DNA of 64,000 nucleotides from Candidatus Moranbacteria bacterium RIFOXYA12_FULL_35_19 (GTDB taxonomy: Bacteria; Patescibacteriota; Minisyncoccia; Moranbacterales; UBA2206): positions 4,241 to 68,240 of the forward strand of contig MFSE01000021.1 in the NCBI GenBank assembly GCA_001784805.1. Reading direction: 5' to 3'. The stretch's first letter is position 1. The number at the start of each line of letters is the position of its first letter. The notes beneath the pieces were generated by a model, which saw only the letters and a program-made list of their open reading frames with translations, was not told the DNA's origin and searched no databases. Below are positions 28,459 to 36,663 of this stretch, in pieces. Position numbers and translations under genes: made by a program.

Positions 28459-29307
28459 ATGAAAAAAGAAAAAAATAATATTGAAAATGATAGTCAAATT
28501 GCTATTTTTAGAGGCAAGAAGATTAGGAAAATTATTTTTCAAAAAGAATGGTGGTTTTCAGTGGTGGATATCGTGGGCGTATTAACGGGGAGTGTAGATG
28601 CGGGAGCTTATTGGAGAAAGTTAAAACAACGACTAATAGAAGAAGGAAGTGAAGTCGTGACATTTTGTCACGGGTTGAAGCTAGAGGCTCCTGATGGCAA
28701 GATGCGAGAAGCTGATTGTGCTAATACTGAAGGAATGTTTAGGATTATTCAGTCTATTCCTTCTCCAAAAGCTGAACCAATGAAGCGTTGGCTGGCTCGG
28801 GTCGGTTATGAAAGAATTCAGGAAATTGAAGATCCAGAATTGGCAACCAAAAGAACAAAAATATTATACAAACTCAAAGGCTATCCTGACGATTGGATCG
28901 AAAAAAGAATGCGCGGGATTGCGGTGCGAGAAGAATTGACGGACGAATGGCAAAAACGCGGAGCGCGAGAGCAAAAAGATTATGAAATTTTAACGGCGGA
29001 AATAACACGGGCGACTTTTGGAATTACGCCATCGGAATACAAGAAGCACAAAGGGCTGAAAAGAGAAAATTTGCGTGATCATATGGATGATTTTGAATTG
29101 ATCTTGACTATGCTAGGAGAACGCACCACGACTGAAATTCATCGCACTAATGATTCTAAAGGCGTGCCAAGGCTCAAAGATGACGCTAGGGTTGGCGGAC
29201 AAATTGCCGGTTCAGCCCGAGCGCAAATAGAGAGAAAGCTCAAAAGATCAATTGTGTCAAAAAAGAATTTTTTGAAAAATAATAATCGCAAAAAAATAAA
29301 AAAATAA
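28459..29307 (+). CDS. BRO-N domain (phage antirepressor-like) protein
   Basis: FRGKKIRKIIFQKEWWFSVVDIVGVL...EGMFRIIQSIPSPKAEPMKRWLARV fits the BRO-N pattern; basic C-terminal tail. Confidence 0.6.
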   Translation: MKKEKNNIENDSQIAIFRGKKIRKIIFQKEWWFSVVDIVGVLTGSVDAGAYWRKLKQRLIEEGSEVVTFCHGLKLEAPDGKMREADCANTEGMFRIIQSIPSPKAEPMKRWLARVGYERIQEIEDPELATKRTKILYKLKGYPDDWIEKRMRGIAVREELTDEWQKRGAREQKDYEILTAEITRATFGITPSEYKKHKGLKRENLRDHMDDFELILTMLGERTTTEIHRTNDSKGVPRLKDDARVGGQIAGSARAQIERKLKRSIVSKKNFLKNNNRKKIKK

Positions 29308-29352: not shown

Positions 29353-31299
29353 ATGGAAAACCCCAATTTTCTCAAACAAAAATTCAATCTTCACAATGCT
29401 AAAGAAGTCAAGGCGGCGGCTAAGCACCCTGATGAAAAAATTCCCAACAATCCAGATGACCAAATCCAAAATTATCTGAATCGTTTGGAAAACTTAGTCA
29501 TCGATTCGGAAAAGAAACAAAAAAGAAAAATGCTTGACGGAGAGCAACGCCCACGAGCTCTTTTTCTTCTGCGAGAAATGCTCCTGAATAAATATGTAAG
29601 ACAAAATAAAGAAAAAATGGCGGAGGGTGCCGTTAGAGTGGAAGAGCGAGCGGCCAGAGAATTGGGAATTGACGCGCATTATGGCGAAGATGAAATTGAA
29701 CAAAGAGGCAATATTGCAGTTAGTGATTTGGAAAAATCATTAGATAATTGGATAACTTATCTCACTGATGCTAACGAATCATATCCGACTTGGTTTCGTT
29801 ACTATGCTTTTCGTAGCATTTTAGGTCTTGGCGATTATGATAAAGACAAAGGAGAATTCCCTAATCGTTCTCAAGGTACAGCTAAACTTTTTCCTGATAT
29901 TGATCGAGGAGCTTTGGCTTACATCCGAGATATCATTGAAGCGGAAAAAGATCCAATAATTTTGGAAAGACTAAAAAAAGCCCAACAAGCTAATCAAACT
30001 CCCGAAGATCAACAAATCACCAAGGAAAAAGCTGAAAAATTTGCCAAACTTTCTTTTGCCAAGCAATATAAAGAAGGAATCAAGCAAGCTGGCGAAATTA
30101 CTCCCGAAATGCGAGAGATTACCGAAGGCAAGTGGGTGAAATATCAAAAAGATACTGATCCCACCGCTCTTTGGGTAAGCTTGCAAAACAAAGGTACAGC
30201 TTGGTGCACGAAAGGTTTTGCCACTGCCGAAACTCAACTGCAAGGCGGAGATTTTTATGTTTATTACACTCTCGACAAACAAGGCAAACCAACTATTCCG
30301 AGAATTGCCATCAGAATGCAAGACAATCAAATTTTTGAAACTCGTGGTGTTTCTGATAATCAACAAAATCTTGAAAGCAATATGATTGACATTGCCGAAA
30401 AGAAAATGGATGAACTTCCTGGTAAAGAAAAATACAAAAAAACTTCTGCTGATATGAAACAACTGACTGAAATTGAAAAGAAAACCAAATCTAATCAAGA
30501 ATTAACCAAGGAAGAATTAGTTTTTCTTTATGAAATAGATGATAAAATTCAAGGTTTTGGATATAATGAAGACCCAAGAATAAAAGAGATTAGGGAGCAA
30601 AGAAAACCAAATATCCAAAAAGACGCATCAATCATTCTTGAATGTGAATCCAATCAAATCGCCAATAAACCAGAAGACATCAATGAAAATACCAAGGCAT
30701 ATATTGGAGAACTAAAATCAGAAATTTTCGAATCAATTCAAAAATATAACATTGAAAATATTTATACCTCATTTCCTGAAGGTAAAATAGAAAAATTTGA
30801 GATGGAACTAGGAGGAAGAACAAAACCAGAAATTGAAAGTGAATTGGAAAAAAGAAAAAAAGCAGAGGGAGATGAAAAAATATACACTTCTGATTATGCT
30901 GAAAGTATGCTAAAAAAACCAGAATTTTTTGTGCAAGAAAAAAAAGAACAATCCAGTTTCGTTAAAATAAAAGTAGGAGATCTCGGTTTTCCTAATGGAG
31001 CAACTGTGCAAGAAATTTATGAAAAAGCCGAAAAACTAGGCTTGGAACTGTGTCCACCAGAAACAGGACCAACAATCAGATTGGATTATGAGAAAATTTT
31101 TCAAAAAGAACAACCAAGAAGAGAATATTTTTGGATTGCGATGAAACAAATAGCCGGCTCTGACGGCTATCCGAGCGTGTTCCGTGTGGGTCGCGGCGAT
31201 GGCGGCGAGTCGTGGCTGGGTGACCGTTGGGCGCGGCCTGACGGCGAGTGGGGTGCTGGCATTGGGGTTGTCTTTCGCCTCCGCAAATTTGAAACTTAA
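29353..31299 (+). CDS. DGR target protein with C-terminal C-type-lectin-like (DUF1566/FGE-like) variable domain
   Basis: The C-terminus ...SDGYPSVFRVGRGDGGESWLGDRWARPDGEWGAGIGVVFRLRK is encoded by VR; no signal peptide; N-terminal 590 aa unassigned. Confidence 0.8.
   Translation: MENPNFLKQKFNLHNAKEVKAAAKHPDEKIPNNPDDQIQNYLNRLENLVIDSEKKQKRKMLDGEQRPRALFLLREMLLNKYVRQNKEKMAEGAVRVEERAARELGIDAHYGEDEIEQRGNIAVSDLEKSLDNWITYLTDANESYPTWFRYYAFRSILGLGDYDKDKGEFPNRSQGTAKLFPDIDRGALAYIRDIIEAEKDPIILERLKKAQQANQTPEDQQITKEKAEKFAKLSFAKQYKEGIKQAGEITPEMREITEGKWVKYQKDTDPTALWVSLQNKGTAWCTKGFATAETQLQGGDFYVYYTLDKQGKPTIPRIAIRMQDNQIFETRGVSDNQQNLESNMIDIAEKKMDELPGKEKYKKTSADMKQLTEIEKKTKSNQELTKEELVFLYEIDDKIQGFGYNEDPRIKEIREQRKPNIQKDASIILECESNQIANKPEDINENTKAYIGELKSEIFESIQKYNIENIYTSFPEGKIEKFEMELGGRTKPEIESELEKRKKAEGDEKIYTSDYAESMLKKPEFFVQEKKEQSSFVKIKVGDLGFPNGATVQEIYEKAEKLGLELCPPETGPTIRLDYEKIFQKEQPRREYFWIAMKQIAGSDGYPSVFRVGRGDGGESWLGDRWARPDGEWGAGIGVVFRLRKFET
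31154..31286 (+). repeat. DGR variable repeat (VR)
   Basis: 133 nt aligning to 31628-31760; about 22 mismatches, every one at an adenine of TR. Confidence 0.9.
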
Positions 31300-31315
31300 A
31301 TTTTTTGAATTTTTG

Positions 31316-31333
31316 ATCCGCCAGTTGGCGGAT
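31316..31333 (+). promoter_or_regulatory. GC-rich hairpin 30 nt downstream of VR (atccgcc-agtt-ggcggat)
   Basis: 7-bp GC stem with a 4-nt loop, placed just 3' of the VR-TR homology as in characterised DGRs. Confidence 0.6.
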
Positions 31334-31627
31334 TGAAACTTTGAAACTTTATTACTTTGACACTTTCTTTCGCGCGAATTTTTTGGTATCATTAATTTGG
31401 ATTGGTTGCATCGAACGGTTACGACTTTTCGAGACCTTTCTCGCAAGCGCAAATTGAGAGCGCGGACGGTCAAGACTTTCCGCGGAGGATTTGCGTCAAG
31501 TTTTCTAAAAAGAAAAAATTTGGTGTGCTGTGCTGGTGGATTTTAGATTCCAAATAAAATACAGCGTTGCTCCTTTTGCCAAATAGCGAATTGAGTAGGC
31601 AGTGGAATAGATGGCATGGCATACAAA

Positions 31628-31760
31628 ACCGACTCTGACGGCTATCCGAACGTGTTCAATGTGAATCGCAACGATGACGGCAAGTCGTGGCTGAATGACA
31701 ATTGGGCGAAGCCTGACAACAAGTGGAATGCTGACAATGAGATTGTCTTTCGCCTCCGAA
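31628..31760 (+). repeat. DGR template repeat (TR)
   Basis: Adenine-rich (AAC/AAT codons in the VR frame); ends with gtctttcgcctccgaaag (IMH*-like); lies in a locally GC-richer, probably structured transcript region. Confidence 0.9.
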
Positions 31761-31778
31761 AGTATTTTCTTTTCCGCA

Positions 31779-32129
31779 TTATTCAAAAGTGCGGTTTTTC
31801 TTTGGCGAATTTTCCAGTTTATTTTTCCAGCCCCATAACATCCTGCCAACTTCTTCAAGTTTGAGTGCAATTTCTTCGTATTGTTTATGAGAAATCAGTT
31901 TTGCGTCCCATGCTACGGAAATGATGAACTTAAGTTTGTCCAAAAGGAAAATACATTCAGAAATTTTTTCAATCTTTTCTTCTTTTTTGGAAAAATAAGT
32001 GATATAGCCAAGTTCTAATAAATCAAGAAGTTTATTTTCAATTCTTGCGCCGATGGTGTAGCGCGCATTTTTCTGTATATGAGGAACAATATTAATCCAA
32101 ATCAAATATCCCTCTTTGATTCTTTGCAA
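31779..32129 (-). CDS. avd: Avd-like accessory variability determinant (four-helix-bundle, TIGR02436-like)
   Basis: 116 aa; the C-terminus ISHKQYEEIALKLEEVGRMLWGWKNKL matches the family pattern ..EE.L....EI.KML.GL; opposite strand to TR/RT and overlaps the RT start by 14 nt. Confidence 0.6.
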   Translation of the reverse strand: MQRIKEGYLIWINIVPHIQKNARYTIGARIENKLLDLLELGYITYFSKKEEKIEKISECIFLLDKLKFIISVAWDAKLISHKQYEEIALKLEEVGRMLWGWKNKLENSPKKNRTFE

Positions 32130-33192
32130 AATCGAAGCATTATTCGAGAGAGAGAGAGAGAGTAAAAGGCTTTTCCATATTTATGATGATATCATCTCTT
32201 TTGAAAATTTGCTAATTTCGTGGCAAGAATTTTTGTGTGGAAAAAGAAAACGTAAAGATGTGGCAGAATTTTCTTTGAATTTTATGGACAATATTTTCGC
32301 GCTTCATAAAGAACTCAAAGAAAGAACTTATCAACACGGTGGATATCAAGCTTTCAAAATTAGCGATCCAAAACCGAGAGATATTCATAAGGCCAGTGTT
32401 CGTGATCGACTAGTACATCACGCTATTTATCGGATTGTATACCCATATTTTGAGGAGAAATTCATTTTTGATTCTTATTCTTGCCGAATCAAAAAAGGCA
32501 CGCATAAAGCGATAAATCGTTTTCGATATTTTAGCCTAAAAGTTTCAAAAAATAATACTCAAACTTGTTGGATTTTGAAATGCGACATCAGAAAATTTTT
32601 CGCCAATATTGATCACCAAGTTCTCAAAAATATTTTAGCCAAAAATATCGTGGATGAAAATGTTTTATGGCTTATGACGCAAGTTATTGATAGTTTTACC
32701 TCGCCCCAGCCCTCTCCTTGTAAAGGAGAGGGGATTAAAGGTCTTCCGCTGGGCAATTTAACTAGCCAGCTTCTGGTGAATATTTATATGAATGAATTTG
32801 ATCAATATGCGAAAAGAGAATTAAAAACGAAATATTATATCCGCTACGCTGATGACTTTGTGATTTTTCACGAAAACAAAAATTATTTAGAAGATCTTAT
32901 CTCTGAAATTTCTAAATTTTTGGAAAATAAACTCAAACTTTCTCTCCATCCGGATAAAGTTAGCATAAATACGCTATCTTCGGGCGTTGATTTTCTTGGC
33001 TGGGTGAATTTTTCGAAACATAGAATTTTACGGACAAGCACAAAAAGAAGGATGATAAAAAAAATTAAGAAAAATACCACGCCAGAAGCAGTTGCTTCTT
33101 ATTTGGGTTTACTTTTGCATGGAAATACATATAAATTGGCAAATAAAATAACAAAGCTCTATTTTGAAAAGAAGAAGATTTCCAATATTTGA
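32116..33192 (+). CDS. DGR reverse transcriptase
   Basis: NLL..W.EF..GKRKRKDVAEF N-terminal region, RDRLVHHA, CRIKKGTH, LPLGNLTSQLLVNIY (DGR-specific SQ motif), IRYADDFVIF. Confidence 0.9.
   Translation: MILCKIEALFERERESKRLFHIYDDIISFENLLISWQEFLCGKRKRKDVAEFSLNFMDNIFALHKELKERTYQHGGYQAFKISDPKPRDIHKASVRDRLVHHAIYRIVYPYFEEKFIFDSYSCRIKKGTHKAINRFRYFSLKVSKNNTQTCWILKCDIRKFFANIDHQVLKNILAKNIVDENVLWLMTQVIDSFTSPQPSPCKGEGIKGLPLGNLTSQLLVNIYMNEFDQYAKRELKTKYYIRYADDFVIFHENKNYLEDLISEISKFLENKLKLSLHPDKVSINTLSSGVDFLGWVNFSKHRILRTSTKRRMIKKIKKNTTPEAVASYLGLLLHGNTYKLANKITKLYFEKKKISNI
32146..32162 (+). repeat. (GA)8 dinucleotide microsatellite inside the 5' end of the RT ORF
   Basis: gagagagagagagagag within codons 11-16 of the annotated RT start. 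Confidence 0.9.
32710..32733 (+). repeat. GC palindrome (ccctctcctt-gtaa-aggagaggg) in-frame in the RT, just before the SQ motif
   Basis: Encodes SPQPSPCKGEG. The Bordetella-type RT has no equivalent residues here. Same ccctctc/gagaggg termini as elements in miaA, dnaE and 33265-33319. Confidence 0.7.
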
Positions 33193-36466: not shown

Positions 36467-36540
36467 TGGGCGATTCAAGATTCGAACTTGAGACCTCGTC
36501 ATTATCAGTGACGCGCTCTAACCAACTGAGCTAATCGCCC
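36467..36540 (-). tRNA. tRNA-Ile (GAU); CCA not encoded
   Basis: gggcgattagctcagttggttagagcgcgtcactGATaatgacgaggtctcaagttcgaatcttgaatcgccca cloverleaf. Confidence 0.9.
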
Positions 36541-36590: not shown

Positions 36591-36663
36591 TGGACCCTAT
36601 CGGGCTCGAACCGATCACCCCCTGCTTGCAAAGCAGGTGCTCTACCAAATGAGCTAAGGGCCC
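36591..36663 (-). tRNA. tRNA-Ala (UGC) with G3:U70; CCA not encoded
   Basis: gggcccttagctcatttggtagagcacctgctTTGCaagcagggggtgatcggttcgagcccgatagggtcca; anticodon UGC. Confidence 0.9.

Follow-up and report, generated by a model that had tools for sequence, protein, structure and literature searches.

Organization of the locus

The window analysed here is a stretch of 64,000 nt from Candidatus Moranbacteria bacterium RIFOXYA12_FULL_35_19 (contig MFSE01000021.1). The region 29353-33192 within it carries, in order, a target gene containing a repeat (VR), a second copy of this repeat (TR), an avd gene on the opposite strand and an RT gene. The target gene (29353-31299, + strand) is a 648-aa ORF encoding a protein of 75 kDa and pI 5.4, which matches the public entry OGI35702.1 (Candidatus Moranbacteria) exactly. 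The avd gene (31779-32129, - strand; 116 aa) lies head-to-head with the RT gene (32116-33192, + strand; 358 aa from a TTG at 32116), and their predicted starts overlap by 14 nt. The earlier note placed an Avd-like gene between TR and RT, which is correct, but missed that it is on the minus strand. The cassette arrangement recurs in 15 related genome loci (same order in 11, block-inverted in three), in which the position and strand of avd are alike. Wu et al. (2018, PMC5758913) named the order of TR, reverse-strand avd and RT architecture B3, written TR-(avd)-RT, and the window cassette has this architecture. A search for an RT promoter gave no convincing one.

Avd scores 55.8 bits against Pfam PF22296 (bAvd), above the cutoff of 40, and 59 bits against NCBIfam NF033474 (DivGenRetAVD), under the stricter cutoff of 80. 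The RT belongs to RVT_1, has an N-terminal extension that is kept in homologues and, on re-inspection, contains both motifs reported for it previously, LGNLTSQ and YADD. Its best match in the PDB is the 328-aa chain 8ub7_A (E = 1.7e-40, 142 bits), in which IGSLTSQ aligns with LGNLTSQ; group II intron RTs in the PDB match with E = 2.7e-21. The record is titled only 'Reverse transcriptase', and we take the chain to be the Bordetella phage enzyme from its length and the bRT literature. The RT reaches none of the curated cutoffs set for RTs of the group II, retron, Drt and Abi families (TIGR04416, group II intron, 150.6 against 300; Drt3a, 78 against 200; Drt2, 63 against 390; retron St85, 59 against 235; AbiA, 26 against 250). 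RTs of the diversity-generating type carry (I/L/V)GxxxSQ instead of QGxxxSP, together with YxDD. Taken together, the motifs, the closest PDB chain and the family cutoffs suggest that the RT is of the diversity-generating retroelement (DGR) type.

The VR/TR pair is adenine-specific

The VR (31150-31286, + strand) codes for the last 45 residues preceding ...RKFET of the target, and the TR (31625-31761, + strand) contains 41 adenines. Each is 137 nt long when their extent is set by allowing mismatches at TR adenines only, and the offset between them is 475. Previously the pair had been given as 133 nt (VR 31154-31286, TR 31628-31760), coordinates that imply an offset of 474, and with about 22 differences; we count 26 inside that VR span. 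Over the full length, 28 of 137 positions differ. Tabulating the alignment by TR base bears out that every difference is at a TR adenine (28 of 28; A>G, 22; A>C, 4; A>T, 2), with 13 of the 41 adenines unaltered in the VR. The probability of every mismatch hitting an adenine by chance is 1.5e-19 (hypergeometric). The changes of AAC and AAT codons to AGC, CGT, GGT and GGC described before are likewise seen.

In the target ORF, 27 of the 28 mismatches affect the first or second base of a codon. An A at position 1 or 2 is found in 24 of the 45 TR codons, AAY accounting for nine, and the theoretical number of protein variants from the TR is approximately 1e22. The window holds a single copy of the VR, and 15 related loci show 274 adenine mismatches within their maximal adenine-only VR/TR extents. 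Of the two repeats, the TR is thus the master that stays unchanged, and the VR is a copy of it mutagenised at adenines.

The homology between the repeats stops at 31286. The last part of the VR (31268-31286, + strand) aligns with the TR as 16 identical nucleotides followed by a fixed C (VR 31284) in place of A (TR 31759), and the same difference, CCGCAAG in the VR and CCGAAAG in the TR, is seen again in related loci. By analogy, this block may set the 3' boundary in the way that the IMH does in Bordetella phage. The GC hairpin said to follow the VR is present at 31316-31333 (ATCCGCC-AGTT-GGCGGAT; stem of 7-8 bp, loop of 4 nt, DNA fold z = -3.75). It has strong counterparts at two related loci (L008 and L015) but, because it is absent from three others (L011, L017 and L022), it is no conserved feature of the family.

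The target protein

The target sequence has no match in Pfam, NCBIfam or the PDB, although more than 2,269 homologues with about 60% identity are found across Patescibacteria, which makes the family very large and highly conserved. No signal peptide had been seen in the protein, and our scan agrees: there is neither a TM segment nor a signal-like N-terminus, and no hydrophobic segment (maximum 19-residue Kyte-Doolittle mean, 0.52). The target is thus predicted to be soluble and is probably cytoplasmic. The core of its N-terminal part (29665-30390, + strand; residues 105-346) has many invariant W, Y, F, R and D residues and no match in Pfam. An exhaustive search found this module in 1,403 representative clusters, always at about residues 110-350 of proteins of 450-1,067 aa, most of which end in other C-terminal regions.

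The C-terminal domain (30946-31296, + strand; about residues 532-648) contains the VR and was modelled as a compact C-type-lectin fold with the VR on display, so that the diversified residues would sit in a domain of this fold, as they do in DGR variable proteins of the Mtd/TvpA type. None of the Pfam lectin families matched the tail. The tail had been called CLec/DUF1566-like, and the model favours the first half of this description; as to the second, neither DUF1566 (Lcl C-terminal) nor FGE-sulfatase gave a significant family HMM match. Within the family, alignment columns of adenine-coded codons have an entropy of 2.61 bits and the other columns 0.89 bits (p = 4e-7), and the family is hypervariable exactly at the adenine-coded columns. 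A related genome has two target paralogues, 290 kb apart, that are both matched by one TR (TR of L045 against VR of L025, 23 adenine mismatches and one other), so that targeting can act in trans.

The TR lies in a predicted structured RNA

We infer that the TR is transcribed inside a discrete RNA of about 400 nt (approximately 31399-31803). A predicted extended -10 box (31384-31392, + strand; TGGTATCAT, family consensus TTTTTTTGGTATAAT) is located at the start of the conserved block and is kept in 15 loci, and is likely to act as the promoter of this RNA.

Between the box and the TR is a 5' domain of about 230 nt with six covarying helices (P1-P3 and P5-P7). Part 1 (31395-31526, + strand) comprises the P1 hairpin (31411-31432), the P2 helix (31448-31454 pairing with 31489-31495), the P3 hairpin (31461-31484) and an A-rich strand (31507-31518), and the loop CGGTyAnGnyTT is common to P1 and P3. 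RNAalifold found compensatory changes in 13 of 17 pairs of this part, and its covariance model (R1) has a sole match in the window, of 130 bits. When 46 metagenome sequences independent of these were examined, pairing held in 92.8% of cells and 22 of 24 pairs were compensatory; the score on these sequences is 0.88, compared with at most 0.18 when slid. Part 2 (31523-31624, + strand) comprises the 12-bp P5 helix (31523-31534 pairing with 31613-31624), the 3' strand of which abuts the first base of the TR, the P6 hairpin (31538-31551), followed by the conserved single-stranded AAAUAAAAUACAGC, and P7 (31564-31600). RNAalifold found compensatory changes in 19 of 21 pairs here; its input was 51 sequences aligned with MAFFT and fitted to no structure. 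The distribution of the domain follows the RT clade.

Beyond the TR is a U-rich strand (31763-31773, + strand; UAUUUUCUUUU) to which the A-rich strand is complementary. With the register fixed, pairs form in 78.2% of cells, compared with 70.5 +/- 1.3% when shuffled (0 of 2,000), and duplexes with the own partner are more stable than those across loci (-5.3 and -3.4 kcal/mol; 0 of 5,000), but the pairing is of low complexity and a reversed-strand control also favours the own partner. We have moderate confidence in a long-range duplex of these strands that brackets P5-P7 and the TR. A stem-loop with a U-run, identified in a terminator scan (31774-31803, + strand; CCGCAUUAUUCAAAAGUGCGG), starts 13 nt past the TR and extends into the end of the avd coding sequence on the opposite strand. 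Of 73 related units, 64 have a hairpin and T-run, with differing stem sequences, and in 56 of 73 it is at the expected position, approximately 200-290 nt past the 5' domain. This points to an intrinsic-terminator-like end of the TR RNA. The hairpin could, however, be only an Avd-binding element or an attenuator, and transcription could read through it into the antisense avd and RT.

A search of 31280-32200 against Rfam 15 gave no family even at E <= 10. A literature search gave no description of the 5' RNA domain, of this 640-aa target family or of stand-alone TR RNA units (considered below), which lie beside targets with no RT or Avd near them, and the RNA arrangement is possibly new.

Two related assemblies differ only in the VR

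We compared the window with related strain records, which are assemblies and not reads. For two independent ones (L140 and L141), 6,986 columns were compared, and the 17 that are not identical to the window all lie in the VR. Substitutions account for 15 of the 17, all at TR-adenine positions; the other ~6.8 kb compared, including the TR, have no differences. The TR and the TR RNA gene are identical in all four related strain records. Because L140 and L141 differ from the window only in the VR and the substitutions are all at TR-adenine sites, the element has been active recently.

Comparison with known systems

The DGR of Bordetella phage BPP-1 (mtd-avd-TR-brt) shares with the window adenine-specific transfer from TR to VR, an Avd partner, the RT motifs (I/L)GxxxSQ and YxDD and the location of the VR in a CLec fold at the C-terminus; a hairpin past the VR and a putative 3' boundary block that does not vary are seen as well. 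A stem-loop after the TR and TR flanks that pair with each other are also shared, here as predictions, and the A-rich:U-rich duplex is topologically similar to the Bordetella 'stop duplex'. The 3' stem-loop may by analogy be the counterpart of the one that binds Avd past the TR of Bordetella phage. In contrast with BPP-1, the target is a cellular, soluble protein and not a phage tail fibre, avd separates TR from RT and is encoded on the opposite strand, and RT identity is low (the 142 bits to 8ub7). The large structured non-template RNA is predicted to be 5' of the TR in the window, whereas that of BPP-1 is a 140-nt 3' spacer, and the window unit ends in a hairpin and U-run about 40 nt past the TR. 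In Bordetella phage, for which an RNP structure has been described, the RT-binding elements are 3' of the TR (Handa et al., bioRxiv 10.1101/2023.10.23.563531); the RT-binding stem-loop and 'thumb ring' of its approximately 140-nt 3' spacer were not found in the window, where the 3' flank is antisense avd.

A further likeness is to the DGRs of CPR/Patescibacteria (Paul et al., 2017), termed 'DGR clade 2' (Roux et al., 2021, PMC8144416) or the 'CPR set' (Wu et al., 2018, PMC5758913). They agree with the window cassette in the lineage of the host, in lying on the chromosome and in how the genes are ordered and oriented. Their targets are without a recognisable TM or conserved domain, the domain with the VR is unclassified and may be a new variant of CLec, and at the system level there is no difference. 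The type of system is itself ordinary and well known, and this element has probably been catalogued already, because the surveys used the same Rifle aquifer MAGs. The 'antigen sensor' or conflict-protein DGRs of multicellular bacteria (PMC10907252) also have an apparently intracellular modular target with a conserved N-terminal part and a diversified C-terminal binding domain. However, the window host belongs to an ultra-small episymbiont lineage, no NTPase or other recognisable conflict-system domain was detected here, and a defence role of the target would be pure speculation. Finally, the RT-associated RNA motifs RT-1 to RT-19, of which RT-10 is between TR and RT in BPP-1 (Weinberg et al., 2017, PMC5737381), are likewise covarying structured RNAs beside a bacterial RT gene that are proposed to be partners of the retroelement. 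The window motif differs in being 5' of the TR, with antisense avd between it and the RT.

Alternative explanations

The VR and TR might be an ordinary diverged duplication or a gene-conversion tract beside an unrelated RT of a retron, group II intron or defence system. RVT_1 is a generic assignment and, consistent with this idea, the top match in PADLOC is a generic RT model and DRT models score too. Against this, the mismatches fall on adenines to an extent that chance does not explain, the RT is under the curated group II, Drt3a and retron St85 cutoffs and its E-value to 8ub7 is lower by some 19 orders of magnitude than its E-value to group II RTs, and a bAvd gene is present. The base-specificity test and the strain comparison refute this explanation, to which we give practically no weight. 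A relic, in which the adenine pattern records past activity and the target is no longer diversified, is improbable. Three VR alleles are recorded, and in two the reading frame is shifted, by a 2-nt insertion in L140 and L141 and by a 19-nt deletion in L142 and L143. The latter strains have additionally lost 26 nt (31365-31390), and with them most of the predicted -10 box of the TR RNA. At eight related loci the TR RNA is retained with no RT or Avd within 5 kb. The frameshifted alleles could be real defective alleles or assembly artefacts of a heterogeneous VR. In the window, however, the RT, Avd, TR and VR are intact and in frame, and a strain difference confined over some 7 kb to the VR, with its 15 adenine-templated sites, means that the rewriting postdates every point mutation of this region.

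A further alternative concerns the RNA and is unlikely, although less so than a relic. The 230 nt or so upstream of the TR would then be outside the template RNA, as a separate small RNA, a leader or a signal in the DNA, for example for transcription, for a regulator or for target recognition. The functional DGR RNA would instead continue 3' of the TR across the antisense avd, like that of Bordetella phage. The single-sequence fold z-score is only -0.98, the RT-binding elements of Bordetella phage are on the other side of the TR, and read-through of the hairpin would supply the mRNA of the RT, for which we found no promoter. However, the 3' strand of P5 directly adjoins the TR, the predicted partner of the A-rich strand is on the far side of the TR, and the covariation of 19 of the 21 pairs in part 2 favours RNA over DNA signals. 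The domain is also specific to one strand, and inverted cassettes still have it at its usual place with respect to the TR. Additionally, at L008 and L026 complete units are located before unrelated genes, which follow the hairpin, and each has 18 VR/TR mismatches, all at adenines.

Proposed mechanism

In summary, the VR/TR adenine pattern, the RT motifs, Avd and the strain comparison uphold the earlier interpretation of the locus as a DGR. We consider that 29353-33192 is a complete, recently active DGR of the Patescibacteria (CPR) type with its template in a predicted structured RNA, with a probability of about 0.9. We propose that the TR RNA would start from its own extended -10 promoter and that its 5' domain is likely to be the scaffold that recruits RT-Avd. 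The A-rich:U-rich duplex would join both ends of the TR, P5 at the 5' end of the TR would act as the stop for cDNA synthesis, and the 3' hairpin and U-run would terminate the RNA and may bind Avd. RT-Avd would copy the TR into cDNA with misincorporation opposite adenines, and the cDNA would replace the VR, with the IMH-like block fixing the 3' boundary. The proposed outcome is a target with a diversified, ligand-binding surface of up to approximately 1e22 variants.

The VR/TR pair and its recent activity

When the extent of the repeats is defined by tolerating mismatches at TR adenines only, VR lies at 31150-31286 and its partner TR at 31625-31761 (both 137 nt, plus strand), an offset of 475 nt. 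All 28 mismatches between the two are at TR adenines (22 A>G, 4 A>C and 2 A>T), 13 of the 41 TR adenines are identical in VR, and the chance of 28 random mismatch positions all hitting adenines is 1.5e-19. The earlier note had proposed this pair and called for its tabulation by TR base, and the repeat and its adenine-only mismatches both stand; its coordinates, however, imply an offset of 474 nt, at which the mismatches look random, and the correct register is 475 nt. With respect to the ORF 29353-31299, 27 of the 28 VR mismatches are in codon position 1 or 2. There are nine AAY codons in TR and 24 codons with an A at position 1 or 2, so that approximately 1e22 protein variants are possible. 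No second VR-like copy is present on either strand of the 64 kb window.

OGI35702.1, from a Candidatus Moranbacteria MAG, is identical to the window target, and two other members of its 90% cluster have the same residues 1-601 with a different VR. The DNA of related records was aligned to the window over approximately 7 kb. In the two ENA assemblies L140 and L141 there are 17 differing columns, all of them inside VR: 15 are substitutions, every one at a TR-adenine position, and the other two are a single 2 nt insertion. There is no difference outside VR, the TR RNA gene included. This is a population-level signature of mutagenic retrohoming, drawn from a comparison of assemblies, not reads, and at that level VR is polymorphic and not monomorphic; a monomorphic VR was the outcome that the earlier note had set against its own claim. 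The inserted bases (TC, equivalent to window 31181) frameshift the target.

Two further records, L142 (GenBank LBQM01000001.1, Moranbacteria GW2011_GWF2_35_39) and L143 (an independent Logan assembly), have the VR of the window minus 19 nt (31157-31175), which frameshifts VR, and a 26 nt deletion (31365-31390) that takes out the predicted -10 box of the TR RNA. They are otherwise identical to the window over approximately 7 kb and may represent a naturally inactivated allele. The frameshift in the public annotation KKP80310.1 is accounted for by these deletions. The metagenomes behind OGI35702.1, ERZ27254751, ERZ28564009 and SRR29904084 are Rifle aquifer samples. Of the three VR alleles, two are thus out of frame, either as assembly artefacts of a heterogeneous VR or as indels introduced during retrohoming. 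Taken together, the data show that information passes adenine-specifically from a TR that does not vary to a VR that does.

RT, avd and cassette order

The RT (32116-33192, plus strand) matches RVT_1. Among solved structures, the closest is the 328-aa RT chain 8ub7_A (E = 1.7e-40, compared with 2.7e-21 for group II intron RTs), in which IGSLTSQ and YMDD align opposite LGNLTSQ and YADD, the two motifs already noticed in the sequence. The chain is labelled only 'Reverse transcriptase'; its length and the associated literature suggest that it is the DGR RT of Bordetella phage. The window RT scores far under the curated cutoffs of the group II, retron, Drt and Abi families. Between TR and RT, where an Avd-like gene had been proposed, there is a 116-aa ORF (avd, 31779-32129, minus strand) that passes the Pfam bAvd threshold and scores below the stricter Avd cutoff of NCBIfam. 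With avd predicted to start at 32129 (minus strand) and RT at TTG 32116 (plus strand), the two genes overlap head-to-head by 14 nt; no RT promoter was found. Gene callers differ on the RT start (310 or 358 aa), and a (GA)7 tract at approximately 32148-32162 encodes ERERE, conserved as RERERE-like sequence in homologous RTs.

The target(VR)-TR-(avd)-RT order is the published architecture B3 (Wu et al. 2018, PMC5758913). It recurs in related loci, three of which have it inverted, as one block, with respect to the target. The DGR is real and complete, as the earlier note had held; it is of a published type and has been active recently.

A phage origin of the DGR was considered and rejected: the closest IMG/VR RTs are at most 62% identical and those of cultured phages at most 39%, and the neighbours in the window are housekeeping genes (GAPDH, amidohydrolase and a long ORF that we read as MurD-like). 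Directly upstream of the target is a Bro-N domain gene (28459-29307, plus strand) that aligns end to end with the PADLOC defence-candidate family PDC-S13 (E = 1.8e-115). Of 139 related loci only one (L024) has a homologue alongside, so a functional tie was set aside and the gene is probably unrelated to the DGR. Two tRNA genes (36467-36540 and 36591-36663, minus strand) lie approximately 3.3 kb downstream of RT and are the sole matches in the window at the Rfam gathering threshold.

The target protein family

The 648-aa target has no sequence match in Pfam, NCBIfam, PADLOC or PDB. There is no hydrophobic segment and the N-terminus is hydrophilic, in keeping with the earlier reading that it has no signal peptide. 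This agrees with the CPR DGR targets described by Roux et al. (2021; PMC8144416), which have no recognisable transmembrane or conserved domains and for which true non-membrane status was left open. More than 2,269 homologues at approximately 60% identity are found in many Patescibacteria lineages. In 114 aligned members, column entropy is 2.61 bits at TR codons with an A at position 1 or 2, compared with 0.89 bits in other VR columns and 0.95 bits in the rest of the protein (p = 4e-7), so diversification falls on the same positions throughout the family.

AlphaFold models are confident over the C-terminal half. The proposed CLec/DUF1566-like tail is right as to the CLec fold, but the protein falls outside the sequence families DUF1566 and FGE-sulfatase. 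A superfamily of 1,403 representative clusters shares the N-terminal core (residues 105-346), mostly in combination with other C-terminal regions. In distant representatives (P0127, P0169, P0259, P0265 and others) C-terminal short-repeat arrays (e.g. ...SLTSAEGLxLP...) or helical repeats replace the lectin tail, which suggests that the N-terminal module is a conserved unit fused to interchangeable binding domains. The module may have a PcfJ-like motif; PcfJ-like or SUKH identity was rejected, the only match being to SUKH_6 below threshold (E = 0.0024, with 18.8 bits where the cutoff is 27). Nothing was found for the module in 10 relatives or 10 distant members, and the public records have no informative names.

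A structured RNA domain upstream of TR

Approximately 230 nt upstream of TR are conserved throughout the first 15 elements studied, inverted cassettes included. The conserved block starts at an extended -10-like box (31384-31392, plus strand), which is a predicted promoter. Hairpins P1 and P3, which have a common conserved loop (CGGUyAnGnyUU), and the helix P2 that encloses them are backed by RNAalifold and by explicit pair counts; the TR RNA unit has the loop sequence CGGUUACGACUU. A covariance model trained on 10 sequences gives a single match in the window (31395-31526, 130 bits), 28 matches in target-anchored loci and 46 in 80 RT-anchored metagenome loci, all of the latter on the RT strand and most of them approximately 650-800 nt upstream of RT. 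Across these 46 independent sequences 92.8% of cells pair, 22 of the 24 pairs have compensatory changes and the covariation score is 0.88, compared with at most 0.18 in slid registers. The next 100 nt hold a 12 bp helix, P5, the 3' strand of which ends at the last base before TR, and hairpins P6 and P7; in this part 19 of 21 pairs have compensatory changes in an alignment not fitted to any structure. The case for the structure is made by covariation, not energy: folded as a single sequence, the whole RNA has an MFE short of significance (z = -0.98).

The A-rich strand at 31507-31518 has its complement in a U-rich strand just after TR (31763-31773) and the two co-vary between loci; the signal reaches significance but low complexity inflates it. 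At its end the unit has a terminator-like hairpin and U-run (31774-31803, plus strand), the stem sequences of which differ between loci; unrelated genes follow it in L008 and L026, two of the loci compared. Pairing of the conserved GGAG motif after P3 with the TR 3' end (CCUCCG) was also considered; it fits some loci, is missing in others and was rejected. A mechanically called 82-aa ORF over TR (31616-31864) is not a gene, because its start is inside P5 and the repeat is followed directly by in-frame stops in related TRs. A run of short motifs with a period of approximately 8-10 nt (TTGAAACTT / CTTTGA) lies between the target stop codon and the predicted TR RNA promoter (31285-31373), with similar motifs at the same place in related loci. 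These could be phased T-tracts, UP-like elements or a regulator binding array.

No family in Rfam 15 matches the domain. It follows the RT clade: scores are strong at RT identities of at least 56%, matches are partial and statistically weak at 45-49% (E 0.05-0.7, chiefly the P3 hairpin), and below that range the domain is absent. On an IMG/VR contig with an RT 62% identical (L148:1740-1878) the domain is approximately 1 kb downstream of RT on the same strand, which is a further cassette arrangement.

Linkage to RT and action in trans

In the 38 family loci for which 2.5 kb or more of sequence downstream is available, the TR RNA domain is present in 22 and RT in 15; eight have the RNA without RT or Avd and 15 have neither. 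Loci in which the domain adjoins the target with no RT or Avd within 5 kb are L003, L008, L026, L030, L032, L035, L045 and L057; in L032, L035 and L057 it is upstream of the target on the opposite strand. L008 and L026 each have 18 adenine-only VR/TR mismatches. Additionally, on one Komeilibacteria contig with target copies 290 kb apart, the TR beside one matches the VR of the other (23 mismatches at adenines and one elsewhere), so one TR can serve distant paralogues.

Discussion

The protein and RNA parts of this DGR and their conservation are established by these comparisons. Thousands of DGRs are known and CPR genomes are enriched in them, so this one adds little as a DGR; its most novel feature is the 5'-structured, apparently autonomous, template RNA. 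The start of this RNA (near 31399) and its 3' end (near 31803), approximately 400 nt apart, are both predicted. The 5' domain would recruit RT-Avd, P5 and the long-range duplex would halt cDNA synthesis at the TR 5' end, and the IMH-like block would fix the 3' limit of replacement; the 3' hairpin may be a transcription terminator, an Avd binder or both. These putative protein-recruiting and stop elements are 5' of TR, in contrast with Bordetella phage, the only characterised DGR RNA, in which the RT-binding elements are 3' of TR. The published survey was confined to the 40 nt before and the 100 nt after each TR.

We put at roughly one in two the probability that the template RNA of this CPR clade is an autonomous small-RNA gene with a permuted layout, in which the protein-recruiting and stop elements precede TR, and that its six-helix 5' domain, with twin CGGUyAnGnyUU-loop hairpins, is an undescribed RNA family marking TRs independently of RT genes. 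On the same reading the unit would be separable from RT-Avd and able to serve targets in trans, because it has its own predicted promoter and terminator.

The strain comparison is an unusually clean natural display of DGR activity, approximately 7 kb being identical between populations save for adenine-templated VR positions and one 2 nt VR insertion. The family also offers one concrete, very large case for the question, left open by Roux et al. (2021; PMC8144416), of whether the targets of CPR DGRs are indeed not bound to membranes. Its 640-aa protein is predicted to be soluble and is highly conserved, with a lectin-fold tip of minimal size, and the N-terminal module is reused with other C-terminal domains. 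The covariance model finds template RNAs even where there is no nearby RT, which serves both annotation and the choice of compact DGRs for engineering. Finally, if the covarying 5' domain is the RT-Avd scaffold, the architecture of DGR RNAs would not be fixed.
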